Virus record (IMG/VR): IMGVR_UViG_3300028837_001424
Location: 1 to 64,000 of that record
Direction: 5' to 3' (one strand)
Origin: a virus
DNA: 64,000 bases
In this document: in pieces, positions 22,939-42,286 of the stretch
Numbering within the stretch: position 1 is the stretch's first letter
Layout of the letters: every line of letters starts with the position of its first letter
Program-made: the position numbers and the translations under genes
The notes under the pieces: generated by a model
The model's database searches: none
What the model was told of the DNA's origin: nothing
The model's input: only the letters and a program-made list of their open reading frames with translations

Positions 22939-23682
22939 ATGGCGAATGAAAAAACATATACTGACGAAAGCCAATTACCGGATTTACCTCCAAACAAGTG
23001 CGGGAAAAGGAATAAGAGTTGTAGGCTTTGCCACTATCGATTTAAGCCTGGCGACAAGTCTTTAATATGCCCTGAGTGCGGAGCCGATCGACGTTGTAGA
23101 GCCGATAAAGTCAAAGGGTTTAAAACATGCAGGATGCACGGCGGTACTGGTGGGAGACCTCCAAAGCGTGTTTACACAGTCGTAAAAAAACTTGAGAAAG
23201 CCTATAACATAGCACTAGAACAAGCGGGCCATATAAGAACATTGGCCGAAGAACTTGCAGCTTTACGGGGAAGGAACGACCAGCTTTTTCGTAGACTTAA
23301 CAGGATTGAAGAAAGAGCGGCTGTCGCGATGGTGCGAAAAGGGCTTGAGAAGGCTCAGGGCGGTGCCTTATTTGGCGATATGAGTAGAGTATCAAAAGGC
23401 ATATCTTTGGCCATAGAGGGTATTACGCAATTGGAAATTGAAAATGAAACTTGGTTTGAATTACGGCTGAACACTGAGTTGATAAGAAAGATGGAAGACA
23501 CAATGCAGAAATGGGACATCGACAATCAGCAGATGATCAGTGCCCAAAACGTATTCGAAATTATAGTTCGCTTTTACGGATTGCTACTCAAGTATGTAAG
23601 AGACCCAACGGATCGACGTAATATATCATTTGAAATAAGGCAACTGTGTCCACCAGACCATGACCTCTATATTGGCTCCTGA
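22939..23682 (+). CDS. Putative terminase small subunit (HGGxSTG domain)
   Basis: CRMHGG motif; overlaps the TerL start. Confidence 0.65.
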   Translation: MANEKTYTDESQLPDLPPNKCGKRNKSCRLCHYRFKPGDKSLICPECGADRRCRADKVKGFKTCRMHGGTGGRPPKRVYTVVKKLEKAYNIALEQAGHIRTLAEELAALRGRNDQLFRRLNRIEERAAVAMVRKGLEKAQGGALFGDMSRVSKGISLAIEGITQLEIENETWFELRLNTELIRKMEDTMQKWDIDNQQMISAQNVFEIIVRFYGLLLKYVRDPTDRRNISFEIRQLCPPDHDLYIGS

Positions 23683-26281
23683 TGAATTTACGATAAAGAA
23701 TGGCGATCCTAGCTACGTCTGGGCTGCGTTAGCCGAAAAGCTGGTTCCTCAAGACATTGATGAGGAAGAAGAGCGCCGCCGAGAATATGCGCGCACGCAT
23801 ATGATAGGCTACACCCAATACACATTTCCAGGCTATATAACAGACCCATTTCATGAAGACGTATGTAACGCAATCGATCGAGTGGTTTTTGACGATCATC
23901 CGGACGGCCACATCAGCCATCTTATGCTATTTGCTCCACCTCAACATGGCAAACAGTGTGCCCATGAAACACCAATTCTAACTACTAAGGGTTGGAAAAT
24001 ACACGGCGATTTACAAATCGGCGATCACGTTTTTGGGCGATATGGTCAACCAGTTAAAGTTGTTGCTTTATCCAAAGATTCAATGGCCGATTTTGGAGTT
24101 GAATTTACTGACGGTGCTATTATCAAATGCCACAGTCGACACGAATGGATTGTATTTGAAAGGGGTGGCCACAGGTCAGTATATCGTTGTTTGGAGACAG
24201 GCGAAATTGAGGCGAATGGTGTATGGATGGGGGAGAGAAACACGCGTGGTGGTAGAGCAAGATACCAAATTGATGAAAATATTGCTATCGAATTTGAACA
24301 ACAAGATCTTCCGATACACCCGTATATTTTAGGCGTTTGGTTGGGCGACGGAACCAAAAATAAAAATTGCATTACGCACAGCCCTAAAGATTATAAGATA
24401 ATAGATAAGATTGAGAGATTAGGCATCGAACGAACTGCTTTCTCAATTCACCCTGAAACGGGCGTCTTTACAAGTTACTTTCGCCGACTTTATAAGTTAT
24501 TGAAAGAAAACGAATTGTTTGACAATAAAAACATACCTGAGATTTACAAATGTTCATCATTAGATCAACGAATAGAGCTTTTAGCGGGGCTAATAGATAC
24601 GGACGGATATATCTACCACAAAAATGGTAGGACCACTATCTCGACGGCTGATGAGCGATTGCGCGACGACATAGCTGATCTAATAAGAAGTTTGGGATGG
24701 CGAGCGACTATTGTTAGATATGAACCAACCACATCATCCTCCGGCATTGTTGGACGTAAGCCAGTTTATCAAATTAGCTTCAACCCAACACTGGATATAC
24801 CGTGTGCATTAGAACGCAAGCGCCCAAAAAAGCTAAATCCTAAAACTAAAAAACGAGGTATCAAAGCCATACGCCGATGTGATCCTGTGCCTGGTCGATG
24901 CATACAAGTTGAAGGCGGCATTTATTTAGTCGGCAAGACACTTATACCAACACATAATAGTGAAATAGTATCCACTCGCCTTCCTGGCTTTTGGTTGGCT
25001 CACCACCCAGAGCTTCCCGTAGCGCTAACATCATATAATCAGCGACTTGCCTATAGGAACAGCCGCCTTTCGAGAGCAGTTGTCGAAAGCCCAGCATATG
25101 ATCGGCTCTTCGGTGGTCCCGAATATGGTATTTTGCGCGATTTAGTAAATTGGAGGAAAAAGGATTGGCATATACTTGGTCATAAGGGATTCGTTTTTTC
25201 AACAGGTATTGAGGGAGATCTTACAGGAGAAGGATTTGGCCTTGGAATTATAGATGACCCCATTAAAGACTGGGCTGCTGCACAGTCAGAGGTGGTTAGA
25301 GAGAATGCTTGGGATTGGTGGAGAGGCACATATACAACCCGAATGTGGGAGCATCACAGAACAGTATTTATGATGACCAGATGGCACGAAGATGATCTAG
25401 CCGCGCGCATAATTGATTCGGAGGGGACTGTCGAGGAAGGGGGGAAGTGGGACATCTTGGCCTATTCGGCGTTAGCGGAAAGCCAGGATGAGCGCAACAA
25501 ATATGCCGAAGAGGCGGGCAGACCGAAGGGTTTGCCCGATCCTCTTGGCAGATTCCCGCTAGAGCCATTGGCTCCTAGTAGATATAGTGCCGAATACTTG
25601 CTTGACGTACGCGATAATGTTGGGTCGTTAGTTTGGGGAGCAGAATATCAACAGCATCCTACGCCGCCAAAGGGCGATTACTTCAAGGTTGGACGAATCA
25701 AGATAAAAGCGATGTATCCTATAGAATCTTTTGGGGGCGAATTGATAGATCGAGTTCCTGTTGGATTAAAAAAGTGTGTACGCTTCTGGGATTTGGCAGC
25801 AAGCGAAAAGAAAAAGGGTAAAGATCCTGACTATACATCAGGCACATTATTGGGGATAGATAGAGAGGGCTTTACATGGGTTTTGAATCAGATTAGCTTA
25901 CAGGCATCATCAGATCAAGTAGAGCAGGTAATACTCCAAACCGCGAATCTGGATGGCAAGAAGGTAAAAATCAGAATAGAGCAGGAGCCTGGCGCGGCTG
26001 GAAAGGCTCTTTGTGCTGCCTATGTTCGAAAGTTGGCTGGCTATGACGTTGAAGGAATTCCGTCAAGCGGTGATAAACAAACCAGAGCCTATAACTTTTC
26101 GGCACAGGTAAACGCGGGCAATGTAAGATTGCTTGATGCGTCTTGGAATAAAATATGGCTGGCCAGGCACCGTACATTCCCATTCGGCAAACACGATGAT
26201 GAGATTGATAGCACATCAGGTGCATTCAATGATCTTACGGGAGGAAAACGTTGGATAAGACAAACATTCAAACACTTGTAA
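23660..26281 (+). CDS. terL: Terminase large subunit, intein-containing
   Basis: Walker A PPQHGK|S; Walker B GIIDDPIKD; MTRWHEDDL; nuclease RFWDLA, DPDYT, EQEPG, HDDEID. Confidence 0.95.
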   Translation: MTSILAPDEFTIKNGDPSYVWAALAEKLVPQDIDEEEERRREYARTHMIGYTQYTFPGYITDPFHEDVCNAIDRVVFDDHPDGHISHLMLFAPPQHGKQCAHETPILTTKGWKIHGDLQIGDHVFGRYGQPVKVVALSKDSMADFGVEFTDGAIIKCHSRHEWIVFERGGHRSVYRCLETGEIEANGVWMGERNTRGGRARYQIDENIAIEFEQQDLPIHPYILGVWLGDGTKNKNCITHSPKDYKIIDKIERLGIERTAFSIHPETGVFTSYFRRLYKLLKENELFDNKNIPEIYKCSSLDQRIELLAGLIDTDGYIYHKNGRTTISTADERLRDDIADLIRSLGWRATIVRYEPTTSSSGIVGRKPVYQISFNPTLDIPCALERKRPKKLNPKTKKRGIKAIRRCDPVPGRCIQVEGGIYLVGKTLIPTHNSEIVSTRLPGFWLAHHPELPVALTSYNQRLAYRNSRLSRAVVESPAYDRLFGGPEYGILRDLVNWRKKDWHILGHKGFVFSTGIEGDLTGEGFGLGIIDDPIKDWAAAQSEVVRENAWDWWRGTYTTRMWEHHRTVFMMTRWHEDDLAARIIDSEGTVEEGGKWDILAYSALAESQDERNKYAEEAGRPKGLPDPLGRFPLEPLAPSRYSAEYLLDVRDNVGSLVWGAEYQQHPTPPKGDYFKVGRIKIKAMYPIESFGGELIDRVPVGLKKCVRFWDLAASEKKKGKDPDYTSGTLLGIDREGFTWVLNQISLQASSDQVEQVILQTANLDGKKVKIRIEQEPGAAGKALCAAYVRKLAGYDVEGIPSSGDKQTRAYNFSAQVNAGNVRLLDASWNKIWLARHRTFPFGKHDDEIDSTSGAFNDLTGGKRWIRQTFKHL
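23954..24958 (+). mobile_element. Class-3 intein (Gln1, WCT signature, 335 aa) with LAGLIDADG endonuclease, in TerL Walker A
   Basis: QCAHETPILTTKGW start; block B HEW; block F GRCIQV; block G PTHN|S; LGVWLGDG and LAGLIDTDG. Confidence 0.88.
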
Positions 26282-29575: not shown

Positions 29576-29871
29576 AATGGATTGCCCTTGTAATCACCGG
29601 AAGGTTGGTTATCTGGGTACTCCAAACTAACGGCCTTACCAAACCGATATTGGAAAAACATCCTAAGCTCAAAGAGCTTGTAGGATGTGAGTTTTGCCTA
29701 GGCTGCTGGGTCTTTATGGCTTTATCGTGGGCATTAAAGGCTAATATCTTAGAGCCGGTTTATGTGCCTGGCCTTTGTGAATTTGTGACTGGAATCACAA
29801 TCTCATTTGCTGTGTACCTGGGCCGGCTCGGTTGGAATGACCGGTTTGGAGTAATCGAGTTTGACAACTAA
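29572..29871 (+). CDS. DUF1360-like membrane protein
   Basis: ELVGCEFCLGCWV with flanking TM segments. Confidence 0.55.
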   Translation: MKWIALVITGRLVIWVLQTNGLTKPILEKHPKLKELVGCEFCLGCWVFMALSWALKANILEPVYVPGLCEFVTGITISFAVYLGRLGWNDRFGVIEFDN

Positions 29872-32011
29872 CCTAATAGTTCCTGATCTTGAGAAAAAAC
29901 TAGTCGATATGTTGACTAGGGATTACCCCGCGCCTCACTGTGGGAATCCTGGGGAAATTGGGGGCTCAAAACCGCGTGAAGAGTGCGATGGTGGTAAACG
30001 TATAGCAGAAGTTACCCATCGATACTCTATGATGTTTCCAGGCATGAAGGGCGAGATCATAAAAGAATGGACTGATCCAAACGATAATAAATGGTATCGT
30101 TTAGATTTCGGAGAAAATCAAACTGGCCAAAGATTAAGATCTAATATTCCCGCTAATTCAGCAAGGGTTATTGAAGAAGATCCAGAAAAAGAGTTATCAT
30201 ACGTCTTGGAAGAAATCGATGCAATTACGGACATAGGCCAAAAGCGTTTTGATGAAGCCAAGGATGAGACCATAAAGATGTTACATCCTGCAGGAATTGA
30301 TTGGCTTGAGCGGGATGAATTAGATAGACTTCAAGCTTTGCTAATGAAGCTGCCTGCCCTAGAGCATGAGATCATGGGAAGCCCACAAGAGCGCGTACGC
30401 ATTAAAAGACAGTTACGTAAGCTTGGTATCGAATTTGATCCAAAAGCACCGCTAAGCGATTTGGCGGAAGCTTTGGGGGCTACTCAGAGGTTCATTTTCC
30501 GTGATTATCCTGGTGACGGTCACCTTATTACTCGCGAAGACCTTCTAAGCATTCTGCGTGGCGACCTCCTGTTAAAAGGGGAACTACGCAGAGTAGTCAG
30601 CCTGGAAAATGGACCATTCCTCATAACTGCCGATTATCCTGATCCGCATTGTGGCCTTGAGGGAACACATGGCGGCTCGCGCTCGCGTGAAGAATGCGCT
30701 ACTAATACCGAAGGGCTTGATATTAGGCCTGGGAAGTTTGCGGCAGAGGGGAAGTGGGCGGTCTTCGAAGAAGACAAGATGGCCACCAACTATCATGACA
30801 CGCAAGAAGAGGCTGCGGAAGAATATCATCGCTCTAAAAAGATGAAAAAGACTGGTCAAGCAGCCGCGGATAAACGCAAGGAACTTATTTCCATAATGAT
30901 CGACGCTGGTAGTTTCACAGAAGAACAGCTTATGGAATTCACTGGTGGACACAAAGAGAAAACCCATAAATACGCCTGGGCTGATATTCAAGATTTAGGA
31001 TTGCGATGGACCGATGCGAAGAATGTATTGGAAAAGATCAAGCCAATTGGTCTTAGCGAAGGCGGCTATCGAATCTATGACATGGAAAGGGTTATACAAG
31101 AAGCACTTGACTTTATGGGTGTTGTTGAGCGAGCAGTTGTTGAGCGCAAAGGATTACTTGCTAGTGTCCGTCGCTCACTTGAGAACTTGGTTGAAAAAGT
31201 ATTATCGGTAGCTAGAGTCGGCGAAGGGCCAGGATACCACGATCCTCACGTTGGATTGCCTGGTGTCCATGGGGGATCTCGCCCTAGGGGCGAAGGCGAG
31301 GCTGCACCGATCTATACCGAACCAGGCCAACAGCAAGCGAATGTGCTTGAGAGTCTACCAGAGGATTTAAAGAAGGTTATCAAAGCTGGTAAATTCGATG
31401 AGGAAACCACTCGTCGTATTCTAGAAAGCTCAGAAAAAAGCATCGAACAAGCAAGCGAGCAGGAAACGCGCACCAGTCCGATGATACAAAGATTGGCACA
31501 GCAGACCGGTGCGCAAATCGAGGGATTTGATTATAGGATAAAAGGGAGAGATTCATTAGCTCGCAAGATTGCAACCGACATGGTTGAAAAGAATCTAAGT
31601 CTGGAAGAGGCCACATCTGATGTTTATGATGCCGTGCGCTATACCATGGTTTTTGATAACGAGGAATTTGCAGATAGAGTAGGCGGTGTCCAGGATAGTT
31701 TACAAGAACAAGGTTGGAGTCAATATGATCTAGCGTGGAAAAACTACTTTCCGGCTGGCGACAATTATGATGGTTACAATACGGTTATGGAAAACCCCGA
31801 TACTGGAGAACGCTTTGAGCTTCAATTTCATACGCCCGAAACATGGCAGCACAAAATGGACACACATGGTCTCTATGAGGAATTGCGAGTTCTTCCGAGG
31901 GATAGTACACGTAGGCTTGAGGTTTGGAATCAAATGGTAGAGGGTGCCGCCGCAATAACAAGACCAGATGGCTGGGATAGATTAAGGGGCCAGCAGGTAA
32001 TAAGGCAATGA
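29861..32011 (+). CDS. Modular effector polyprotein with C-terminal Apk2-like RelA/SpoT (SAS) toxin domain
   Basis: Three tag repeats; C-terminal YRIKGRDSLARKI...DAVRYT...YDGYNT...FELQFHT...HGLYE. Confidence 0.8.
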   Translation: MTTNLIVPDLEKKLVDMLTRDYPAPHCGNPGEIGGSKPREECDGGKRIAEVTHRYSMMFPGMKGEIIKEWTDPNDNKWYRLDFGENQTGQRLRSNIPANSARVIEEDPEKELSYVLEEIDAITDIGQKRFDEAKDETIKMLHPAGIDWLERDELDRLQALLMKLPALEHEIMGSPQERVRIKRQLRKLGIEFDPKAPLSDLAEALGATQRFIFRDYPGDGHLITREDLLSILRGDLLLKGELRRVVSLENGPFLITADYPDPHCGLEGTHGGSRSREECATNTEGLDIRPGKFAAEGKWAVFEEDKMATNYHDTQEEAAEEYHRSKKMKKTGQAAADKRKELISIMIDAGSFTEEQLMEFTGGHKEKTHKYAWADIQDLGLRWTDAKNVLEKIKPIGLSEGGYRIYDMERVIQEALDFMGVVERAVVERKGLLASVRRSLENLVEKVLSVARVGEGPGYHDPHVGLPGVHGGSRPRGEGEAAPIYTEPGQQQANVLESLPEDLKKVIKAGKFDEETTRRILESSEKSIEQASEQETRTSPMIQRLAQQTGAQIEGFDYRIKGRDSLARKIATDMVEKNLSLEEATSDVYDAVRYTMVFDNEEFADRVGGVQDSLQEQGWSQYDLAWKNYFPAGDNYDGYNTVMENPDTGERFELQFHTPETWQHKMDTHGLYEELRVLPRDSTRRLEVWNQMVEGAAAITRPDGWDRLRGQQVIRQ

Positions 32012-33702
32012 GATACTTTGTCAGGATCAGGGATAATCCAAAGGCAAATAACTATATGCAGCTACTCTCGTTGCATCGTTTAGGTAAGCGCGGGAATATT
32101 CTCATTACCGAGCGTTGGGATCGAAACAAGAAAAACTGGGTTGATAATCTAAGTATGCTTTATCGTTTCAGCGGCATGGGTGGCGCAAATGATTTTAGAG
32201 AGATCGTAGAGCCTGAGGCTACTGCTTTGATCAAACAATGGTCCAAACCACCTACGATTAAAAGGCCCAAAGACAAAAGACGATGGGAAGATCGGCGTGC
32301 TAAGGAGTTTGAAAATGCAAAAGAAGAACAGCACAAATTAGCGCATCACGTTACTGGTCCTGCTAGTGTAGGACCAACATCATCCTATATTCAAAGTAGT
32401 GTTGTTGGCGCGCTTAGGAGAGTTGTTGAATTACAACCTCTTTATATCAATCTTCCAATAGACGAATCGCAGATTGAATTAAACAAACAACAAGCATTAG
32501 GCAAGCTTGATCCTACGGTGAAGTTGGAACCTGTTGACTTTGATAAACTACACATCACTTTAATATGGTCAGAAAACTGCTCTGACCAAGCTGTTATTCA
32601 AAGCATAAAAGAAGTTTCATGGCCAATGTCATTCAGTGTGCGGGTTAGTCGGTTGGAGGTACTGCAGTCTGATGATGGCTTGACATTAGTTTGGGCTGTT
32701 GATCCAGATCCCGCCCTTGTTAGGCTACAGACCGAGCTTTATAATGCCTTCAAAAATAACAACATAGGCCTTAGCGAGTACTCTGATCAACAGGTTTACA
32801 AACCGCATATTTCAATAGCATATAACTTAAGCCACATGCCATACGAATTACCATCGATAGAGCCATTTAAAATATCAATAGATAGAGTCAGGGTGACCCG
32901 CAAAGATTATCGCGAAACCATGTCAATTGATCTTGTTGGGAGAGACTATCCAGACCCTCATTGCGGATTAGCGGGCGAGCACGGAGGCTCTCGCCCGCGG
33001 GATGAGTGCGCACCCAAGGACGATGAGGGAAAACCAATATCGCGTATTGAGGCTACAAGTGATGCTCAACTTGACTCGGCAATAGAATCTGTTATGGATA
33101 CGTGGCACGATTATGAAGGAGCAAGGATTGCGCTAAGTTGCTTACACGAAGAAATTGCCGAAGAGGGCATAGGGGAAACCCATATATGGAAACGCGACGA
33201 TGATTTAATGGGCGTTATGAGTATTTCACAAGACGCAGCACCATTTACAATTGAGCAATTATCTTCGCTGGATGCCCCTGGACTTGAGGGCGATAAACTT
33301 ACTCAGGTTTTGTATATTGCAAGCAAAGAGCGAGGCATAGGGACAAGGATGATGCAATATGCGGTTGATATTGCAGCCGATAGAGGACATGGTTTATGGG
33401 TTTATTCTGAGCCGGAAGCCATGGGCTTCTACGAAAAGATTGGAATGAAAAGCGCTGTTGATTCTAATACAGGAGCGCCAACCAGATTTTATTACTTCAC
33501 AGACGAGGATGTTAAATCATTATCTTTGCCAACCGTCAAGAAAGCCTTACCCGAAGTCAAGCCTGAAGACGAGCCAGAAAGCGGTGCCTTCGCGTCGCCG
33601 CCTCCTAAAATTGATTCATCAAAAAAGGCCGAATCTAAGGTAGCCAAAAAAGAACGACGTAAGAAAAGCAAAAAGAAACGTAAACGAAAGGCGCGTAAGT
33701 GA
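32008..33702 (+). CDS. Polyprotein: IapK-like immunity domain + 2H phosphoesterase + tag + GNAT + basic tail
   Basis: N-terminal RYF..L.RL..ERWD..KKNWVD..DFREI.E.EA; HITL and HISI 2H motifs; RGIGTRMM...AMGFYEKIGM; KKERRKKSKKKRKRKARK. Confidence 0.75.
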   Translation: MRYFVRIRDNPKANNYMQLLSLHRLGKRGNILITERWDRNKKNWVDNLSMLYRFSGMGGANDFREIVEPEATALIKQWSKPPTIKRPKDKRRWEDRRAKEFENAKEEQHKLAHHVTGPASVGPTSSYIQSSVVGALRRVVELQPLYINLPIDESQIELNKQQALGKLDPTVKLEPVDFDKLHITLIWSENCSDQAVIQSIKEVSWPMSFSVRVSRLEVLQSDDGLTLVWAVDPDPALVRLQTELYNAFKNNNIGLSEYSDQQVYKPHISIAYNLSHMPYELPSIEPFKISIDRVRVTRKDYRETMSIDLVGRDYPDPHCGLAGEHGGSRPRDECAPKDDEGKPISRIEATSDAQLDSAIESVMDTWHDYEGARIALSCLHEEIAEEGIGETHIWKRDDDLMGVMSISQDAAPFTIEQLSSLDAPGLEGDKLTQVLYIASKERGIGTRMMQYAVDIAADRGHGLWVYSEPEAMGFYEKIGMKSAVDSNTGAPTRFYYFTDEDVKSLSLPTVKKALPEVKPEDEPESGAFASPPPKIDSSKKAESKVAKKERRKKSKKKRKRKARK

Positions 33703-33721
33703 CAACCACAGGAGTTGAGGC

Positions 33722-34669
33722 ATGACCAAAATAGATGTTATGTTGAGCGTGTGGAAGCCTTGGAGCTTAGCACTGCCACCAAACAATATATCAATAAAAG
33801 ATCAGGTGAACACCGCCAAAGCTCTTGATGTGCGCGCCATAGCAATAAAGGGGACCAACCGCAATGTTATTTATGGTGCGAAGGAAAAAATGGCATGGCC
33901 ATACAACAAATACAGCAATGATCACATCGAGATCGAGGCCAAGGCACAAGGGCTTGAAGTGGATCTGTGGTGTTGGGTCGACTGCCGGCATCCTGCTATT
34001 CAAGCCGAAGCAGTAAAACAGGCGGTCGCCAGATGGAACCCACGCAACGTATTTATTGATTGTGAAGGCGGGATAGCCAAAACCTATGCTTACAACACAG
34101 GGGCCTTCCTGAGAAGCCTAGGGCGGCTTTATAGGCACAATGGCGAGGAGATAAAGGTTTGGCTACAGTCATATCGTCGGCCAATGTTGCACCCAGAAAT
34201 AGCTTGGCATAAATGGCTTACTTATGTTGGCCAAGATGGGCAATATCTGCTCGAAGGCATATCGCCACAAGCTTACTATGTGGGGACACAGGATAGCGTA
34301 AGTGACTACGCGGGCATGTTATCGGAATACGAAAAGATGGAAGCTAGGATTGGTCGAGTCTTGAATTGGCATGTAACCCTACCTGCGTATTACGAACACG
34401 GTTGGCAGCCTACCGCTGACAGTCTTGAGGCTGGTATTGATTTCCTTAGAGACGAATTAGAAGATCGATTGGTCGGTGTTAATTTCTTCCGACTAGGATG
34501 GTTGATGAACGATAAACTACTCGATGTTTGGTCAATGCTTCTTGGCTATGATTGGGGAGAGGAAGAGGAGCCAGAACCCGAACCGACGCCATTTGAACAG
34601 CGCCCCGAACCTGAACGATGGGTCATTGTGGGTGACGATTTTAGATCACGAGGCGTAATAAGTGACTAA
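33722..34669 (+). CDS. Putative glycoside hydrolase-like (TIM-barrel) protein, possible muralytic enzyme
   Basis: AKALDVRAIAIK...WCW...FIDCE...PQAYY pattern resembling GH25-like phage lysins. Confidence 0.45.
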   Translation: MTKIDVMLSVWKPWSLALPPNNISIKDQVNTAKALDVRAIAIKGTNRNVIYGAKEKMAWPYNKYSNDHIEIEAKAQGLEVDLWCWVDCRHPAIQAEAVKQAVARWNPRNVFIDCEGGIAKTYAYNTGAFLRSLGRLYRHNGEEIKVWLQSYRRPMLHPEIAWHKWLTYVGQDGQYLLEGISPQAYYVGTQDSVSDYAGMLSEYEKMEARIGRVLNWHVTLPAYYEHGWQPTADSLEAGIDFLRDELEDRLVGVNFFRLGWLMNDKLLDVWSMLLGYDWGEEEEPEPEPTPFEQRPEPERWVIVGDDFRSRGVISD

Positions 34670-34723
34670 GAGTGTCATTTGATTAGAAGAATGCAATTTC
34701 ACTAAAAGCACCATATTCAACGA

Positions 34724-35695
34724 GTGTTGAAAATACCTTATTTAGTGAAAATGGTTGTATCTGTGGAAATAAAGAAAGTTGTAATGGGGCCAATGAGAAG
34801 AGTGATTAAACAGAATGAGACTATGCCTATTGTTGTAGGTCTTCTTAGACGCGTTTTTACAAAAACCAAGCAGCTAAACTCCTTAGATTTGCCAGAATTT
34901 ATGGAGCGCGTTGGTAAAGGACCAGGATATCACGACCCTCATTGTGGGCCTCCTCCAGGCGTACATGGTGGCTCAAGACCGCGCGATGAATGTGCTGGGG
35001 AGGTGTCTGTTGAGACTGGCGAACAAATGGTTCAACCATCAATACAAGGGCCACGCGATTTCGGCGAGAATGTTCCAATAGGGGCAAAGTGGATGCCCAG
35101 AAGAGAATATCGGGCAATACAGGAACAGATAGAACATAACGCCATGGATTGGGGTGAGGAAAACTTTGATGAGTTTGTAGAATCGCTATCCGATGAAGAA
35201 ATTTTGGCAATGAGTTCTTATAGAGTACAAGCCTATGATCCCATCAATGATTATTTACGGAAAGGCAAACTCGATCCATACGCAATATATACAGAGGAAG
35301 AGGTTAGGGAATTAATACCCATGATCGAAGGCGTTTTGGATAAAACACAAATTCCTGAGGAAGTATATGCCTATAGAGCGATGCGGATGCCCGAATTTAA
35401 AGATCCAAAAGAGATGATAGGTGAGACATTTACTGATTTCGGCTTTGCCTCGACCACAATGGTGCCGCACATGACTCACGTTTGGATGGAACAACCATCC
35501 GAAACGCCCAGATTCGTTGCTAAGATTAGGATACCTCAAGGTACAAATGCGGCATATATCAGCCATATAACCCATAAAGATCAAAATTATTATCCCGAAG
35601 AGACCGAAATACTATTGCAACGCAATACTAGGTTTAGAATTTTGGGATTAAATAATGACGGGTCAATAGATATGGAGGTTATTGGTGAGGAATGA
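34724..35695 (+). CDS. Tag + VIP2-like ADP-ribosyltransferase (start uncertain, 34724-34823)
   Basis: INDYLRKG; AYR; DFGFASTT; IRIPQGT.AAYI; EETEILLQRNTRFRI (R-S-ExE). Confidence 0.85.
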   Translation: MLKIPYLVKMVVSVEIKKVVMGPMRRVIKQNETMPIVVGLLRRVFTKTKQLNSLDLPEFMERVGKGPGYHDPHCGPPPGVHGGSRPRDECAGEVSVETGEQMVQPSIQGPRDFGENVPIGAKWMPRREYRAIQEQIEHNAMDWGEENFDEFVESLSDEEILAMSSYRVQAYDPINDYLRKGKLDPYAIYTEEEVRELIPMIEGVLDKTQIPEEVYAYRAMRMPEFKDPKEMIGETFTDFGFASTTMVPHMTHVWMEQPSETPRFVAKIRIPQGTNAAYISHITHKDQNYYPEETEILLQRNTRFRILGLNNDGSIDMEVIGEE

Positions 35696-35873
35696 AATAG
35701 GCAAATTCACCTGGGACTTCGGCCTAGACCAAGACCAAGGCATAATGTTTGATAGTCAAAAGGCTAGTTTGAAGGAAGATAAACTAGCTCCTTGGGATGC
35801 CCAAGTAATATCACGCGCGGTTCAAGAAGTTGTTGATTCATTAGCGAACTTGCTTGGTATCGAAAAGAAATAA
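35682..35873 (+). CDS. Small protein coupled to the ART gene
   Basis: GGAGG RBS; overlaps the ART stop. Confidence 0.45.
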   Translation: MVRNEIGKFTWDFGLDQDQGIMFDSQKASLKEDKLAPWDAQVISRAVQEVVDSLANLLGIEKK

Positions 35874-35912
35874 ACCAGCCATTCTATACAAGAAACCCAT
35901 TTGCACTAAGCG

Positions 35913-35950
35913 ATGAGGCGACCCTTTTAGTGGGTCGCCTCATATTTGTT
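35913..35950 (+). terminator. Intrinsic terminator
   Basis: ATGAGGCGACCC/GGGTCGCCTCAT 12-bp stem followed by a T-rich tail. Confidence 0.7.
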
Positions 35951-35952
35951 AT

Positions 35953-35997
35953 ACGGTGCAAATGCTCTACCAAAGACTTATCTAATTGATTTATCAT
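35953..35997 (+). promoter_or_regulatory. Putative late promoter (second copy)
   Basis: ACGGTGCAAATGCTCTACCA-N18-TTATCAT. Confidence 0.6.
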
Positions 35998-36026
35998 GTA
36001 AACAGCCTAATACATGGGAGGTTACA

Positions 36027-37004
36027 ATGCCTATAGGGATTGGCGATGCCCCAGGCACTTTGCCTAGCCATGCGAAGGATATATACGTCTCGGCCTTCAA
36101 TAATTCTTACGAAACGACTTGTAAGAAAAGGAAAGATCGAGACGCGTGCGCGGCAAAGATAGCCTGGTCGGCTGTCAAAAACAAATATAAGAAGGGTGGA
36201 GAAGGCAAGAAATGGGTTGCCAAGAGCTTTAATGAACTCGAAGTTGATGTTGGCAATATTCCTTTGCCCGGTTCTTTATACGAGTCACCCTACCATGCTG
36301 CCCAAAATTGGATTGATGCTTATGGCTCATGCATTATCGCGGAAAAATCTATTGGAGAATCCGCCAGTGACGCGTGGGCTGTTTTGAAGACGCATTACGA
36401 GTGTGATAGTCAGGGACTATGGCAGATCAAGGACGGACAAATGATTGAGCGAGCTTCACTAAACCCCGAAGAGGAAATTGTGGAAGCCCCAGAGGATGCG
36501 AAAGCCGAGCTTGTCATCGTTCGTTCTGAAATCGGCGGCGGATCTTGGCGTACAGAAGGCGGTCCCATTATCGTTGATGGTTTGACACCTGAACAGGAAC
36601 AAGCCCTTGTAGATAAATATTGCAATGAAATAGCTGCAAGGCCCGAAGGTTTTCCTGGAATGGCTTGGGCATCATTAGCTCTCAAGCATAAAACGGTTTG
36701 CAAAGCGATTCATCTTAAGCGCAGATCGAGAGCTTATATGTGCGCAGTCGAGCGCGAACAAAAGCGAGGATGGACTACTTATCTTAACCCATTGAATCCG
36801 AGCGAATATATCTTTAGCGGATGGAAAGTTGAGCCGGACAAAGCGCAAACCCTACAACGAACAGTGCTTGTTCGATCCATTACGGATGACGGCACTAAAT
36901 GTGAACATTGGCTGCTTGGTGATCCGCTCAACTTTGCATCGGCTACCATACAACGCGACGTTGGCCCTGATTATGCTCGATTCAGAGGTCCACTTTTGAA
37001 ATGA
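36027..37004 (+). CDS. ChaB-domain protein (two ChaB-like repeats)
   Basis: LPSHAKDIYVSAFN...AKIAWSAVKNKYKK; second copy HAAQNWIDAY...AWAVLKTHY; GGGAGG RBS. Confidence 0.75.
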   Translation: MPIGIGDAPGTLPSHAKDIYVSAFNNSYETTCKKRKDRDACAAKIAWSAVKNKYKKGGEGKKWVAKSFNELEVDVGNIPLPGSLYESPYHAAQNWIDAYGSCIIAEKSIGESASDAWAVLKTHYECDSQGLWQIKDGQMIERASLNPEEEIVEAPEDAKAELVIVRSEIGGGSWRTEGGPIIVDGLTPEQEQALVDKYCNEIAARPEGFPGMAWASLALKHKTVCKAIHLKRRSRAYMCAVEREQKRGWTTYLNPLNPSEYIFSGWKVEPDKAQTLQRTVLVRSITDDGTKCEHWLLGDPLNFASATIQRDVGPDYARFRGPLLK

Positions 37005-37828
37005 CGCCAATTGATGCTGGTGGAAGCGGCAACACTGGCCATACCACGGCGAGAGGCAAGAAAAGGATTAAGCTTACGCCTGGTGAGGCTGGTTACCGCG
37101 AAGGAATGGGTATACCAGAACTGCGATGCGGAGATTGTGTTTTTTATGTGAATGGTTTGTGTGAGAAAGTTGCAATTAAACCAGACGCCGATGATGTTTG
37201 TAATGAATTTGAGCCTGCCTTACAGAGGGGAAACCTAAGTTCAAATTCTCCAGGAGTGGGTTCGGATTTTGCTACACTAAGAGGTTTGTTAGTGCCAGAC
37301 TTATTGAAATCTAAAGCTAAATGGGAAACGATGGGCCGCAAGGGAGGGCCCAAAGCCGCTGGGCCAGATGGCGAGTGTGTTTGTCCAGAATGCGGATATA
37401 AAACCAAACATGTGGCTGGCGAACCGTGTGAAGATAAAGAATGCCCTAAGTGCAAAACCCCTATGGTAAGAAAAGGTCTTATTGTAAAAGGTGGTTCACG
37501 ATCAGGATATCATGATCCGCACTATGGCAGAGTTGGGCAGATTGGAGGATCAAGAACAAGGAAAAGTCAGATAAATAAACTTCGGGAAGTTGCTATTGGT
37601 TGGCGAAGCATTGTATTGGGATCAATGCATCATAAGATTACTCGCACCGTTGGCCAAGGCAGGCACGAGGCGATTATCAGGAAGACTAGTGAAGGATGGG
37701 ATCTGTCAAGACAAACATACGATTATTGGGGAACACCAATGGGGCGGTCAGGCGTTAGTCATCATGATGAATTAATAGCGGCAATGGCTTCTGGCAATGA
37801 TTGGATTGAGAGAAAAGCAAATGACTGA
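37001..37828 (+). CDS. Modular protein: Cys-cluster domain + Zn ribbon + tag + unknown domain
   Basis: CGDC..C..C (HiPIP-like spacing); CVCPECG..C..CPKC; YHDPHYG..GGS. Confidence 0.65.
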   Translation: MTPIDAGGSGNTGHTTARGKKRIKLTPGEAGYREGMGIPELRCGDCVFYVNGLCEKVAIKPDADDVCNEFEPALQRGNLSSNSPGVGSDFATLRGLLVPDLLKSKAKWETMGRKGGPKAAGPDGECVCPECGYKTKHVAGEPCEDKECPKCKTPMVRKGLIVKGGSRSGYHDPHYGRVGQIGGSRTRKSQINKLREVAIGWRSIVLGSMHHKITRTVGQGRHEAIIRKTSEGWDLSRQTYDYWGTPMGRSGVSHHDELIAAMASGNDWIERKAND

Positions 37829-39425
37829 AAAACAATTGCTTCAAGAACAAGCAGTCGGCATGGAATTAATTATCACGAAAGTTGCCAAAGATAAGCAGAC
37901 TGGCGAAAAGCGCTGGTTTGCACGAGCAAGTGGCGTTGAGCGAGACTTATTTGATGAGAGGATGTCGAAAGAATTGTTTGATGACTTCATCCGACGTGCA
38001 GAAGCCAAAGAATCTGTACCAGAACCATTCTCAAGCAAAGCCTGGAACGGCGGATTGCCATATCTAGGAGTTGCCCATTATCTTGATCTGGAAGGTGAAG
38101 GTATAGCAGGACCTACGACTCAAATCTATACAGATGGCGATTATTTCAAGTCAAAGGGCACATTTGAGAATAGCGAATTAGGAGACCTTTGTTATGACGC
38201 CATCAAGAAAGACATAGAAGATGATATTCCGCACGACCAACGAATACGAATTTCGATTGCGTTTATTGACTGGGGACACGATCACGAAGGACATGGTGTA
38301 TTTAGGCGCGAATCTCTTATGGATCGATGTGAACTATGTGGAAAAGGCATAGGAGAGAAGATTTATAAGGCCGGCCACCTTGTTCATCTGGCACTAACAA
38401 GAAGGCCAGCTTACCCCCAAGCTACTATAGAACTGGAGGAACGATCCATGAATAAGAGACGTGATGATGCCGCTTCCATTGTGGGGGATGATAAAGCTGA
38501 CGAGCTTGAAGCAAAATCCCTAGAAATGCTTCTAGTTGGCAAGACTGAAGGAATTGACCCAAATGCAGTAATCATCAAGGCTGACGAGGAAACGGGTGAA
38601 GAGAGCGCCGAGGAAGCCCCCTATGGTGGGGCTGAAACACTTGACGAAGCCGAAGCGTATCTTGTCCAAAAAGCAACCGAGCCAATCTTGATGAATTCCT
38701 GGGGCGTCTTACAAGGCGTTCTAACTAACATAGCGGGTCGGGATCATGGGCCAGCAATAGCTGAGCAGTTAAAGGCGTTTCAAACAACGCTTGATGTGCA
38801 AGCTCTTGAGGCTCTAAAATCCATGACCCACAGGGAGGTAGTTATGCCCGAAGTAGCAAAAGAAGTTATCGTTGAGAGGCAGCCGCCCTTTGTTGGTGAG
38901 GAAGAGTTAGCTGAGGAAGAAGGGTTAACGACTGGAACCGTTGAAGAGGTAGAAGAGGAAGAGGAAGTTGCCTTCCGATCCACCTCTGAAATGGCCGAGC
39001 CACACCCCTTGGATGAATCTTTCTTGGCACTACGTACCGCCTATGATGAGGCGCTGGAGACCCCTGTAGACCGCTCCTCGCGGCTTCAGATGATTCAGCC
39101 CGCTATAAATGCCGTAGGCGACGCCATCCTAGCCAATATTGAGGCAGTACCCGCGGAAGGCGCTGTTTCAAAGGACATTATTAAGCGAGCCATTGAAGAG
39201 GCTGTCGCACCCCTTCGGGCTGAACTTGAGGCGCTAAGAGTAAAGTCCTTATCAGATTCAACACCTCCGCCCCAAGTGCCAGTACCACGGCACATCGTCG
39301 CTCCAGCACGCGTTGTTAACCAGACGCCTGAAAAACTCATTGTTCGTGACATTGAAGAGGCTAAGGTAGACAACCCAACACCAAAACTGCGTGCAATAGT
39401 GCGCAAATCAGTAGGAATACGGTAA
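37821..39425 (+). CDS. Putative prohead protease/scaffold protein
   Basis: Directly upstream of MCP; ASGVERDLFDERMS, H, SI, HLALTRRPAY protease-like motifs; acidic helical C-terminus. Confidence 0.7.
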   Translation: MTEKQLLQEQAVGMELIITKVAKDKQTGEKRWFARASGVERDLFDERMSKELFDDFIRRAEAKESVPEPFSSKAWNGGLPYLGVAHYLDLEGEGIAGPTTQIYTDGDYFKSKGTFENSELGDLCYDAIKKDIEDDIPHDQRIRISIAFIDWGHDHEGHGVFRRESLMDRCELCGKGIGEKIYKAGHLVHLALTRRPAYPQATIELEERSMNKRRDDAASIVGDDKADELEAKSLEMLLVGKTEGIDPNAVIIKADEETGEESAEEAPYGGAETLDEAEAYLVQKATEPILMNSWGVLQGVLTNIAGRDHGPAIAEQLKAFQTTLDVQALEALKSMTHREVVMPEVAKEVIVERQPPFVGEEELAEEEGLTTGTVEEVEEEEEVAFRSTSEMAEPHPLDESFLALRTAYDEALETPVDRSSRLQMIQPAINAVGDAILANIEAVPAEGAVSKDIIKRAIEEAVAPLRAELEALRVKSLSDSTPPPQVPVPRHIVAPARVVNQTPEKLIVRDIEEAKVDNPTPKLRAIVRKSVGIR

Positions 39426-39524: not shown

Positions 39525-40730
39525 ATGACAGAACAAATAGTTCCCGATATCACTGGCGAGCGGGTTATCAATCCTTCGACTGGCGAAGTCTTTGTTTCAA
39601 AAGCCACCGATCCTGTTATCCTGCCTCAGCCATACGCAACACCTGGCACGTTCTCGGCTCAGTACCCTACTCCACTTGACCCAACCGAGATCATTGCATT
39701 GTGCGAGGAAGTCTCACTTTGGCAAGCATTACCTGAGGAGTTTACATCTTTGAAGGCGTATACTTGGCGCGAAATGGATGCCATCCAGATGATCTCTGGT
39801 TCCACCGCCGCATCAACGTATTTGTTCTTCGCTGATGGTGAGTGTCCTGAGGAGTACGAGCACGAAGGGGACAATTTTACAGTGAATTTAAAAAATATAG
39901 GCGCGAAGAAAAGCCTCAGCATTTCGGACATAATGCACTCGGCGGCTGTGGCTGGAGCTAACTGGCATGGAATTAACCGCCTTGTTGGCGGGTTCCCTGC
40001 AAGTGAAGGCGCGCCAGGCGGAACCGATGCTGCAACGTTTAGCCAAGAACGTGTTTCCGATCTAAAAGAGAAGGAAATTCGAATCGGAATGACATCAGTG
40101 CTGAACGGATGGGACAAATATCTTGTGATTGGCAATAGCGCTGCGCCAGGCGGATTGCAGTTTGATGGACTTGACAATTACGACGCAAACATGGGTGGAA
40201 CTTGCACCTTCCATACAAACGCTGCCGGTGCCCACACTGGAATCTTCACCGCCATTGGCTTTGACCGCTGGTTATCCGAAAGTTGTGCAAAACCAACGCA
40301 CCTTTTTGGGCATCCACAAAGTATGCAAGAGTTGATGTCTGCTTACTTCCAGCTTGGTTACCAGGGAAGTCAGGTGGTCAATTTTTCAAGCGGTGATCGG
40401 ATTGTCCCAGGATTTAACTTTGCCGGTTACGTCAATACTGGTGTTGGCCGATTAGCAGTAACTTCGGACAACAACTTCACTAACGCGACCTATAATGATG
40501 ATATTCAAGGGGAGATTTATGCCCTACGAATGAATCAGAACGGCGAACCGTTGGTGTATAAGCTAACCCAGATTCCGCTTGCTCTTAAAGATCTTACCCC
40601 TGGTTGTACTGCAATCAGTTTTGAGATTTGGTGCAAAACCGCGCTTGTTGTAAAAGCGTGCTGCGCCCAGGGTCGTTATACAGCCCTATTCTCAGGCCGA
40701 GTTCAAGCAACTTGTTCAACCATCGGATAA
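39525..40730 (+). CDS. Major capsid protein
   Basis: Position, 401 aa, GNS...QFDGL motif, strong RBS, downstream hairpin. Confidence 0.75.
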   Translation: MTEQIVPDITGERVINPSTGEVFVSKATDPVILPQPYATPGTFSAQYPTPLDPTEIIALCEEVSLWQALPEEFTSLKAYTWREMDAIQMISGSTAASTYLFFADGECPEEYEHEGDNFTVNLKNIGAKKSLSISDIMHSAAVAGANWHGINRLVGGFPASEGAPGGTDAATFSQERVSDLKEKEIRIGMTSVLNGWDKYLVIGNSAAPGGLQFDGLDNYDANMGGTCTFHTNAAGAHTGIFTAIGFDRWLSESCAKPTHLFGHPQSMQELMSAYFQLGYQGSQVVNFSSGDRIVPGFNFAGYVNTGVGRLAVTSDNNFTNATYNDDIQGEIYALRMNQNGEPLVYKLTQIPLALKDLTPGCTAISFEIWCKTALVVKACCAQGRYTALFSGRVQATCSTIG

Positions 40731-40843: not shown

Positions 40844-42286
40844 ATGCCAGGTATGTCAGATACACCAGTTGATGGTCAACAATATTCAGGTTTATTCAAT
40901 GGTGTTCCAGTAGTACTCGAATACGATGGTTCTGCTGGTGGCTATAAACTTGTTGTTGCTCAAGAGTATGCTGTTAACTTTATGATATCCGGCGTTGTTG
41001 CATTGGAGCCTGGCGATATCGAGATAGGTGCGGTTGAGTTAAAAGATTATGTCACTGATGACCGCGCTCATGTTGATACAAGTCACCTACTTCATGTCTG
41101 CCTAGCGTCAGGTACTATTTGGACCATAGCAGTTGTGCAGTCTGATAAACGTGAGGACACCGCGCATATAACTGGCGATTGGGGTAACTTTAACTTGAGT
41201 GTTCGGCAAGATGCACATGGTCCTTCTGGGGGCGATGGCGATTATGTAGCATTTCTAAGTGATGCCAATGGCTATCTTAAAGTCTGGACGACTGGATCTC
41301 ATTCGTTTGTTGATGTTCTAAGTGATCCGGCTCTAGAAAAAGATGTTGATGAAGTAACAGCCTACGTTACTGGTTCGGTCGGTTTAGTAGATGCCGATGG
41401 TGATCTGGCTAAGATTAATGCCGATGGTTGCTTGCAAGTCGCAGTATGCACGGGTTCGGTAGTTGCCGACACTGAGCTTCCGGCTGCGGCTGTTCTAACC
41501 GATGATTTTGCGAATCCAACTGCGCCTGCGGTGGGTTCATTTGGTATGGGTTATTATCCTGCCAGCGGTTCGTGGTCTCGTCTGACGGTAGATGAGAATG
41601 ATCAATTAAAAGTATCTCTCAGTAGCGAAAATGAGGGTGCCAGTGGCTCTTATGCATTGAGAACTTCTCAATGGGGTATGGCACCTAGCGGATATAGACC
41701 CATTCTGATTGATGATGATGGTCATTTACAGGTCGATATTTTAAGTGATCCAGTACTAGCTAAAGATACTGATGAAGTAACAGCTTACGTAACCGGTTCG
41801 GTAAGAATCGTTGATAGCGAAGGCCATGAGGCTGGTGTTTCTGAGGCCGGTTGTCTACAAGTTCAAGTCTGCACAGGTACCGTTATAGCTCATGTGGAGG
41901 GCGACATACAGATCGGTGCCGTTGAAATAAAAGACGGCGACTCTGATCAACGCGCAGAGGTTGATGCTGATGGATGTTTGCACGTATCCGTCTGTACAGG
42001 ATCAGTAGTTGTTGGTGACGGTGGGGATTCACTTACTGTTGATGATGGAGGTTCTTCGCTAACCGTTGACGGTGCGGTGACGATTCCAAAGCTTGATAAA
42101 GATACGGATGAAGTCAGCGCTTACGTAACTGGCTCGGTTCGAATTGTTGATAGTGATGGTCATGAGGTCGATGTTTCTGAGGATGGTTGTTTAAAGGTTC
42201 AGGTTTGCACTGGGACCGTTGTTGCCACTCTAGAAACTGGTGATATTGAAATAGGTGCAGTAGAAATCAAAGACAGCGACACATGA
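40844..42286 (+). CDS. Repeat-rich virion fibre/decoration protein, part 1
   Basis: Repeats IEIGAVEIKD, DGCLQVAVCTGS, DEVTAYVTGS; ends at a frameshift. Confidence 0.7.
   Translation: MPGMSDTPVDGQQYSGLFNGVPVVLEYDGSAGGYKLVVAQEYAVNFMISGVVALEPGDIEIGAVELKDYVTDDRAHVDTSHLLHVCLASGTIWTIAVVQSDKREDTAHITGDWGNFNLSVRQDAHGPSGGDGDYVAFLSDANGYLKVWTTGSHSFVDVLSDPALEKDVDEVTAYVTGSVGLVDADGDLAKINADGCLQVAVCTGSVVADTELPAAAVLTDDFANPTAPAVGSFGMGYYPASGSWSRLTVDENDQLKVSLSSENEGASGSYALRTSQWGMAPSGYRPILIDDDGHLQVDILSDPVLAKDTDEVTAYVTGSVRIVDSEGHEAGVSEAGCLQVQVCTGTVIAHVEGDIQIGAVEIKDGDSDQRAEVDADGCLHVSVCTGSVVVGDGGDSLTVDDGGSSLTVDGAVTIPKLDKDTDEVSAYVTGSVRIVDSDGHEVDVSEDGCLKVQVCTGTVVATLETGDIEIGAVEIKDSDT

Follow-up and report, generated by a model that had tools for sequence, protein, structure and literature searches.

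A conserved boundary tag ahead of cargo domains in a phage head module, with a possible role in head maturation

The internal proteins of phage T4, including IPI-III and the ADP-ribosyltransferase (ART) Alt, carry a capsid-targeting sequence that is removed by gp21, and the cargo is then injected together with the DNA. Encapsulin cargo-loading peptides are short and conserved and direct diverse enzymes into an HK97-fold shell. Polyvalent proteins are multi-domain phage polypeptides with ART, Zeta toxin, ParB, GNAT, 2H, MuF, and metallopeptidase domains, the genes of which adjoin head-morphogenesis genes; according to the searchable text of the source, their packaging and injection are supposed, and zincin metallopeptidase domains are proposed as their processing agents (Iyer, Burroughs, Anand, de Souza, and Aravind, 2017, PMC5512222). 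MuF polymorphic toxins, as described in the searchable part of the source (Jamet et al., 2017, PMC5576092), have their toxin domain on a head protein whose gene follows that of the portal. The searchable text of the former makes no mention of a recurrent inter-domain motif, and that of the latter no mention of a junction motif. Such a motif, here called the tag, is described in the first 64 kb (hereafter the window) of the IMG/VR virus record IMGVR_UViG_3300028837_001424, which is 112,591 bp long and rated complete by CheckV. Six copies of the tag, with the pattern Y-x-x-P-H-x-G-x3-G-x-x-GGS-[RK]-x-R, are found in four plus-strand open reading frames (ORFs) between a portal-MuF gene and a prohead protease gene. 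The system in the window belongs to the known head cargo of polyvalent and MuF type, and the conserved boundary tag is its new feature. The tag is read here as a putative linear recognition element for head maturation, that is, a processing site of the prohead protease which perhaps also recruits cargo, and a probability of about 0.5 is given to this reading.

The locus combines features of several of these systems. At least two unrelated effector or enzyme domains are joined in one polypeptide, as in polyvalent proteins (2H/Acb1-like and GNAT domains in ORF 32008-33702, three tag-delimited segments in ORF 29861-32011), the ART, GNAT, and 2H domains of the window fall within the polyvalent repertoire, and the array lies in the head-morphogenesis module, between portal-MuF and protease; tag-bearing giant proteins of other phages hold exactly the polyvalent domain set. 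One difference from the described polyvalent proteins is that the window distributes its cargo among four ORFs and has the MuF domain on the portal. Similarly, MuF-tag-ART proteins in two other loci (L071 and L134) resemble MuF toxins and carry the tag at the MuF/toxin junction, whereas the toxins of the window are ORFs separate from the portal-borne MuF-like domain and do not have an N-terminal MuF and C-terminal toxin layout. The T4 targeting sequence is likewise an N-terminal peptide on unrelated head cargo, as each tag in the window precedes a different domain, and the T4 protease has the same fold as that of the window; however, the T4 signal has ~10 residues of unrelated sequence, occurs once per protein, and is cut at LxE, whereas the tag has ~30 residues, is Gly-rich, is repeated in polyproteins, and is conserved across very distant phages. 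Encapsulin peptides are also short conserved linear peptides on diverse enzymes, but they have another consensus, are usually C-terminal, and are non-viral, with no protease or portal. In addition, the CdiA VENN, PT-TG, and PT-HINT pre-toxin motifs are short conserved elements placed directly before a swappable toxin domain, as the tag is; unlike the tag, they occur once per protein in secreted toxins, and their shared flank is thought to allow recombinational displacement of cassettes.

The six tag copies of the window, with E-values against a general profile built from 821 instances nearly all from other phages, are as follows.

29906..29980, plus strand: tag copy 1, MLTR-DYPAPHCG...GGSKPR; E 1.6e-5
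30584..30691, plus strand: LRRV and, 15 amino acids further on, tag copy 2, LITA-DYPDPHCG...GGSRSR; E 1e-3 (5.6e-19 with a local profile)
31205..31291, plus strand: tag copy 3, SVAR-VGEGPGYHDPHVGLPGVHGGSRPR; close to the wider consensus, E 3e-10
32929..33003, plus strand: tag copy 4, LVGR-DYPDPHCG...GGSRPR; E 4e-6
34898..34984, plus strand: tag copy 5, FMER-VGKGPGYHDPHCGPPPGVHGGSRPR; E 2e-9
37478..37561, plus strand: tag copy 6, LIVK-GGSRSGYHDPHYGRVGQIGGSRTR; E 2e-10, the best match to the general profile

A six-frame regular-expression scan of the window finds the core [DA]PHxG-x(3-7)-GGS[RK] exactly six times (29930, 30641, 31241, 32953, 34934, and 37514), always on the plus strand and in the coding frame, and nowhere else. 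The general profile agrees: searched against the complete genome (112,591 bp) in six frames, it hits only these six sites, at E 2e-10 to 1e-3, and the next candidate has E 2.6. An original prediction from the letters of the window had placed six copies in four ORFs between the portal-MuF and protease genes and none elsewhere, and both points are borne out, the second also for the rest of the genome; a partial copy that it noted near 30503 finds no support from the profile. Its hydrophobic-x-R/K site before five of the six copies corresponds to positions -4 to -1 of the family consensus (L/I/V, R/V/I, x, K/R). When the six copies are aligned, Y, P-H, G, G, GGS, and R do not vary. The aligned DNA of the copies has scrambled third codon positions, and the same-codon fraction at identical residues is 0.32; the repeat is therefore a selected peptide and not a recent DNA duplication. 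The window copies are degenerate relative to the wider family, and three of them (DYP[DA]PHCG) are without its GGxGSG half.

A second motif, LRRV, had been proposed as a recurrent element of linkers. It does recur, with three occurrences in the coding frames of the region (30584, 32413, and 34844; ~2,650 coding residues) and two elsewhere in the six frames of the 64 kb, but its status as a separate linker motif is not upheld: [LT]RR[IV] directly precedes the tag in relatives of the phage (GALRRIINRGGPGSG, TRRIVKRGGPGSG, and LKRVIKRGGPGSG), and LRRV thus extends the tag at its N-terminus. At two of the window's copies it has shifted 15-22 residues upstream of the tag, and it stands alone before the 2H domain. 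Three further candidates were dropped, namely an acid-labile or autocatalytic site of GD|PH type, since the Asp is replaced by A, G, or E in other copies; a zinc knuckle formed by H/C...EC, since copies 3 and 6 and the wider family lack the cysteines; and a relic tag at the portal/MuF junction (TKGGRGGLGSF), which the profile does not detect.

The tags of the window are a divergent form of a widespread motif of ~30 residues, hhx[KR]-GGxGSG-xx-GHxG[RL]PGxxGGS-xP. A word-indexed search with the six copies led to metagenome proteins with the fuller consensus KGGPGSGYHxPHxGLPGVHGGSxPR, several copies each, and an exhaustive profile search of 1.84 billion cluster representatives brought the family to 868 proteins at E<=1e-3, of which 190 reach E<=1e-10. 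Its top members are giants of 1,200-3,100 amino acids with 5-10 tag copies, between which ART-PolyVal, 2H, ParB_N, GNAT, and Zeta toxin domains are found; ATLF is also among the domains of tag-bearing proteins elsewhere. The consensus from 821 unique instances is [LIV][RVI]x[KR]-GG-[PK]-GSG-[NHY][FHW]-G-H-x-G-[RL]-P-G-x-[VI]-GGS-x-P-[GS]-G, with ~14 positions at which G, S, and H reach 97-100%. At the DNA level, the pattern GSGNFGHxGRPG occurs in at least 114 IMG/VR stretches and in 29 contigs of prokaryote genomes, mostly metagenome-assembled genomes (MAGs) of Clostridia and Lachnospiraceae, the others being from Dehalococcoidia, Omnitrophota, Elusimicrobiales, Sulfuricaulis, and a Methanomassiliicoccales archaeon. 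The archaeal MAG contig (L044) contains two adjoining ORFs, 3-620 and 959-2266, with canonical tags; the motif may therefore reach archaeal tailed viruses, or the contig may be mis-binned. The pattern for HxGLPGVHGG was found in no viral contig and in 24 metagenome stretches, of which ~7 are genuine tags, on short contigs. The tag is absent from the two cultured phages that were checked, cyanophage PSS2 (gp030, a polyvalent protein with a Zeta domain) and Faecalibacterium phage FP_Brigit. The MuF protein gp34 of FP_Brigit (L169, 13283-14197) ends in ...PVTKGGDGRG and a stop just before the protease gene, and this end resembles the first third of the tag, cut off at the gene end. The motif is apparently uncatalogued: the tag has no match in Pfam even at E 10, no matching model in NCBIfam, and no significant sequence match in the PDB, and its motif strings and linker descriptions were not found in the full-text literature, a search that largely leaves out subscription journals, so that an earlier description is possible.

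The position of the tag relative to domains is highly regular. Of 167 tag-bearing proteins, 97 have the start of their first tag no more than 40 residues from the N-terminus; the copies number 1-10 per protein (mode 4), with a median spacing of 222 amino acids, about one domain. What remains behind the last tag has a 5% quantile of 93 amino acids, and the tag thus opens a domain and almost never closes a protein. Among 148 post-tag segments from the loci with the GSGNFGHxGRPG pattern, those with a Pfam match fall into 24 families that are mostly toxins or effectors, including ADPrib_exo_Tox (7), Zeta (5), MuF (5), ART-PolyVal (3), Ntox50 (3), NUDIX (3), ART (2), and ATLF (2), together with GNAT, topoisomerase IB, PBECR3, and CdiA_C. 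Head-internal scaffolding precedes the first tag, the 69 segments in this place including portal (29), DUF2213 or Peptidase_S78 (10), NUDIX (10), and MuF (3), and the architectures MuF-tag-ART, DUF2213-tag-X, S78-tag-X, and portal-tag-X all occur in single ORFs.

The genomic context is that of the head module. A sample of 148 genes lying no further than three genes from a tagged ORF has as its recurrent families Phage_Mu_F (14), portal (10), large terminase (~9), and S78/DUF2213 (6), along with capsid, cement, and minor capsid proteins and further effectors, and it contains no conjugation gene. Of 32 tag-bearing viral records (>=35 kb), 22 contain DUF2213 or S78, and of 14 control genomes none contains DUF2213. 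PF04586 was detected in 2 of the 32 records, but this one figure cannot be used because the window's own protease also escapes the PF04586 model, the sensitivity of which is too low. The position and neighbour tallies support the view that the motif is a portable element confined to head modules and ahead of variable domains, and the mostly non-structural or non-phage context that had been named beforehand as evidence against it is not what the neighbour tally gives.

On the plus strand, the order of genes around the array is large terminase, portal-MuF, an ORF with a SAP motif, six ORFs (29861-37828), a 542-amino-acid protease ORF, and a 401-amino-acid ORF.

23660-26281, plus strand: large terminase with an inserted element, 873 amino acids
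26348..28876, plus strand: portal fused to a MuF-like head-morphogenesis domain, the upstream border of the array; phrog_2662 (portal) E 3e-15, phrog_2468 at residues 570-761
29861..32011, plus strand: polyvalent ORF of 716 amino acids with three tags (residues ~21, 258, and 458), each followed by a segment of 180-235 amino acids
32008..33702, plus strand: polyvalent ORF of 564 amino acids with an N-terminal domain of ~135 amino acids, LRRV (32413), a 2H phosphoesterase/Acb1-like domain, tag copy 4, GNAT, and a basic tail
33722..34669, plus strand: ORF of 315 amino acids without a tag, predicted TIM-barrel, inside the array
34724..35695, plus strand: ART ORF in which MRRV/LRRV elements (34844) and tag copy 5 precede the ART domain (PF03496 E 3e-27, residues 142-306)
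35946..37004, plus strand: ChaB-domain protein without a tag (PF06150 E 3e-19), conserved just upstream of the protease in relatives
37001..37828, plus strand: ORF of 275 amino acids with a Cys-cluster domain, zinc-ribbon-like CxxC pairs, tag copy 6, and a ~90-amino-acid domain without a family
37797..39425, plus strand: prohead protease (assemblin/gp21 fold, residues ~15-195) with a helical scaffold-like C-terminal part, the downstream border of the array
39525..40730, plus strand: candidate major capsid protein (MCP), 401 amino acids, 49-66% identical to the post-protease ORF in 14 relatives

Both proposed borders of the array are confirmed, the portal-MuF gene by its phrog_2662 and phrog_2468 matches (with 33-47% identity to the portal ORFs of eight relatives) and the protease gene by the fold match to T4 gp21. 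The ORF at 39525..40730 has no family match of its own and is taken as the MCP candidate on position and conservation. No DNA match to the region and no MCP match was found among GenBank phages.

A different domain had been expected after each tag, and this holds for the SAS, GNAT, and ART domains, whereas the other three tag-following segments in the window have no family match. The SAS-like C-terminal domain of ORF 29861-32011 matches SaSAS (PDB 8vx3, E 1e-24) and also phrog_7625. ORF 32008-33702 matches PF13563 (E 1e-8), PF23474 Acb1 (E 6e-6), and PF00583 (GNAT, E 5.5e-5), with the 2H/Acb1-like domain upstream of tag copy 4, and a homologue of the ART ORF (P0006) has the same layout as that ORF. 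Apart from the ChaB ORF at the downstream end, ORF 33722-34669 is the only ORF of the array that has no tag, and it has no Pfam, PHROG, or PDB sequence match. Its model is a confident TIM-barrel (Atlas predicted template modelling score 0.81) with structure neighbours in the ESM Atlas at template modelling scores of 0.66-0.74; they comprise bacterial proteins with a fused LysM or PG_binding domain, together with "GTA TIM-barrel-like" proteins, and as a lead from modelling the protein may be a cell-wall hydrolase.

Comparison with relatives of the phage shows that the cargo changes while the tag stays. There are 233 relatives of the protease, and the comparison took in 17 related IMG/VR loci. 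Tagged arrays stand between portal-MuF and protease in nine of these 17. L176 has the most, with seven or eight tags, followed by L170, L171, and L173 with six each, L184 with five, and L178 with four; L174, L175, and L177 have a single tag. Another seven relatives, which are more distant, are free of tags and arrays and show a short portal-protease gap, and L186 is too truncated to judge, as its locus ends just after the protease start. The core proteins are conserved across the relatives, at 49-66% (MCP), 33-47% (portal), and 29-46% (protease) identity. In contrast, ORFs 29861-32011, 33722-34669, and 34724-35695 have no homologue in the array of any relative, and only the 2H domain (L177 and L178) and ChaB are shared with the relatives' arrays, the L184 counterpart of the ChaB ORF having the layout ChaB-tag-DUF2958. 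Since the array ORFs are unrelated between relatives while the core proteins are conserved, the cargo turns over behind a constant tag, in line with the swappable cargo of the original prediction. Residues 8-85 of ORF 37001-37828 match residues 13-86 of the relatives' protease ORFs, and one relative (P0252) has a canonical tag at the same Cys-cluster/protease junction. As the Cys-cluster domain heads the protease protein in relatives, a unit of zinc-ribbon, tag, and ~90 amino acids seems to have been inserted into the protease gene and to have split it. ORF 37001-37828 overlaps the protease ORF by 32 nt in another frame.

The likeness of tags within a phage can indicate how they are read. Mean tag identity is 0.77 within a protein or locus vs 0.64 between phages, and the same-codon fraction at identical residues is 0.38 within loci vs 0.30 between loci, near background. 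Because codon identity is near background, gene conversion does not account for the within-phage likeness; selection on the peptide maintains it, as expected if one partner of that phage reads all copies; similarly, boundary DNA shared for recombination, as at pre-toxin motifs, is not found. The tag modelled alone in AlphaFold2 (AF2) with a 147-sequence alignment has a predicted local distance difference test (pLDDT) score of 57 and no secondary structure, which fits a linear motif rather than a mini-domain.

From the observed motif, its distribution, its position relative to domains, the head-module context, and the cargo turnover, we infer recognition in trans, cleavage, packaging, and ejection. 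The tag would be an unstructured peptide that marks the N-terminal edge of each cargo domain in head-module polyvalent proteins, made up of a hydrophobic-basic stub (hhx[KR], here sometimes after LRRV), the GGxGSG-xx-GHxG[RL]PGxxGGS-xP part, and a Gly/Ser tail. A component of the head assembly and maturation machinery would read it in trans; the gp21/assemblin-fold prohead protease would most likely dock on the tag and cut the polyproteins into single-domain proteins inside the procapsid, and where tagged proteins have no portal, MuF, or scaffold domain of their own, as in the window, the same contact may bring about their entry into the procapsid. The freed SAS toxin, 2H/Acb1-like phosphoesterase, GNAT, ART, and family-less domains would then exit with the DNA at infection. 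What suggests this head-maturation reading is that the tag is polar relative to domains, that it follows portal, MuF, and scaffold/protease domains, that its context is the head module, that it bears the signature of recognition in trans, and that a protease of gp21 fold is encoded next to the array. In 42 of 69 cases, the tag comes directly after a portal, MuF, or scaffold/protease domain, and since such upstream domains already ensure head entry, a processing or boundary role is favoured at least as much as an address role. The HK97 S78 protease cuts the capsid protein after Lys, which would make a cut at hhx[KR]|GG chemically plausible.

The AF2 model of the N-terminal domain of the window's protease (195 residues, pLDDT 85-95) superposes best on T4 gp21 (5jbl; Z 9.4, root-mean-square deviation 3.6 over 138 residues), and herpesvirus assemblins, over 20 of them, come next (Z 5-6.5). 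The ESM Atlas places the protease next to Peptidase_S78 and S77. Invariant His and Ser columns among 24 relatives are H86, S145, H153, H155, and H189. A complex prediction for the protease domain and the tag scored 0.02, a value that, being without controls, speaks neither for nor against binding. DUF2213, which recurs before tags, is the N-terminal domain of gp24, a capsid-internal scaffold protein of Pseudomonas phage Pa193, in which residues 286-326 bind the five-fold vertices (PMC11456595). The alignment of 18 DUF2213 domains from tag-bearing viral genomes (L187-L206) has invariant P, H, E, S, G, H, and A columns, and on the strength of the invariant H, S, and H, DUF2213 may be a prohead protease domain; a comparison with the window's protease family by hhalign found no relation (probability 1.4%).

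Several points weigh against head maturation as the role of the tag. Known prohead-protease sites are short, such as LxE in T4, AxE in phiKZ-type phages, and VxA|S in herpesviruses. The tag has ~14 near-invariant positions and is far longer and more conserved than these, so something beyond a cleavage site must constrain it. In addition, the motif is near-constant although the proteases, portals, and capsid proteins are too divergent to align, and an invariant partner or an intrinsic chemistry fits this better than a phage-specific partner. On a one-domain protein, an N-terminal tag could be separated from no more than the 6-30 residues before it, seven relatives have no tags although they share the protease family, and most DUF2213 proteins in tag-bearing genomes have no tag themselves. 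No proteomic or biochemical data were found for any tag-bearing phage.

The tag could alternatively be a pure address or anchor that stays uncut. Like the encapsulin peptides or the T4 targeting sequence, it would load each domain into the procapsid, or keep it there, by binding a head component such as the scaffold, the inner capsid surface, or the crown of the portal, with any cleavage elsewhere. An address would agree with four observations: the tag stands at the very N-terminus of many stand-alone proteins and is never C-terminal, every cargo domain keeps a tag copy for itself, the likeness of tags within a phage is selected, and all tagged ORFs of the window lack a portal, MuF, or scaffold domain. 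An address is nevertheless unlikely, as it would be redundant in the 42 of 69 cases where the upstream domain already secures head entry and would have to remain near-constant while its candidate receptors have diverged too far to be recognised. A flexible linker that is open to proteases or insulates folding, and that persists as a divider of cassettes in the manner of the VENN and PT-type pre-toxin motifs, would need no specific partner. It would account for a Gly/Pro/Ser-rich motif with no predicted structure that always lies between domains, for the swapping of cassettes between relatives, and for the apparent insertion of a tag-plus-domain unit into the protease gene. Such a passive boundary is quite improbable: ~14 near-invariant positions, with H and S at ~100%, would not be expected of a passive linker over 821 instances, the copies are poor substrates for recombination because their DNA identity is at background, and N-terminal tags on single-domain proteins link nothing.

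The near-invariant H, S, and glycines across phages of bacteria and an archaeal MAG suggest chemistry or a universal partner such as the ribosome, and the layout is like that of separators in a viral polyprotein. The chain might accordingly be broken without a protease, either by an N-to-O acyl shift at GG-S with His as the base or by ribosomal skipping or pausing at GRPG. Little credence is given to this, since the tag has no predicted fold able to strain a peptide bond, the Asp-Pro of the window is unconserved in the family, and three window copies without the GGxGSG half are retained; moreover, known cis-autoproteolytic motifs need a folded domain, and 2A-like skipping is not known in bacteria. 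DNA as the invariant partner would also explain the conservation, with RPG-x-[VI]-GGS-x-P-R lying in the minor groove like the linker of the Pax paired domain or an AT-hook and tying the cargo to the packaged genome. The sole PDB resemblance of the tag is between its second half (GLPGVHGGSRPR in the window) and residues 64-79 of 1pdn chain C, the paired-domain linker RPGVIGGSKPR, which lies in the DNA minor groove. The references of one source, moreover, call the MuF protein gp7 of SPP1 a DNA-binding head protein (PMC5576092). However, with E 1.5 and 11 bits the 1pdn match is no better than chance, the canonical tag is no more than weakly basic, and neither the conserved GGxGSG-xx-GH half nor the polarity relative to domains would be explained, which makes a DNA tether highly improbable.

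Beyond the window, the motif may be a general portable signal for loading and processing injected effectors in the heads of tailed phages, whose hosts would span many bacterial phyla and one or more archaeal lineages. The prohead protease or the scaffold would read it, a tentative proposal given somewhat less than even odds. If it is true, the tag marks anti-defence and toxin cargo that has not yet been recognised, and most domains found behind tags have no family. The tag can serve as a search key, as a domain that follows it in a head module is a candidate injected effector, and its place at the boundaries of cargo domains offers a mutable handle on the question of how polyvalent proteins and MuF-linked toxins enter the head and are cut. 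If the tag is sufficient for loading, it could also become a tool for packaging chosen proteins into the capsids of laboratory phages.

Further observations concern single genes of the locus. The SAS-like domain of ORF 29861-32011 (residues 508-705) matches the C-terminal end of the NCBIfam model for XopAD/skwp type III effectors (E 1.4e-31) and also PRK09169 giant proteins; because of this match, effectors of XopAD/skwp type may end in an alarmone-synthetase-like domain. The 873-amino-acid terminase ORF (23660-26281) contains an intein-like insert of ~330 amino acids that starts with C-A-H-E-T-P-I-L-T and ends with T-H-N-S; the terminase of L177 aligns to residues 430-869 only, and the insert region (residues 103-435) aligns to the N-terminal part of a 769-amino-acid ORF in L182 and L183. 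After the capsid gene, at 40844-45314, two large ORFs (480 and 1005 amino acids) are built of many near-identical repeats of ~100 amino acids (DTDEVTAYVTGSV...DGCLQV.VCTG.V) and may encode a decoration or fibre protein.

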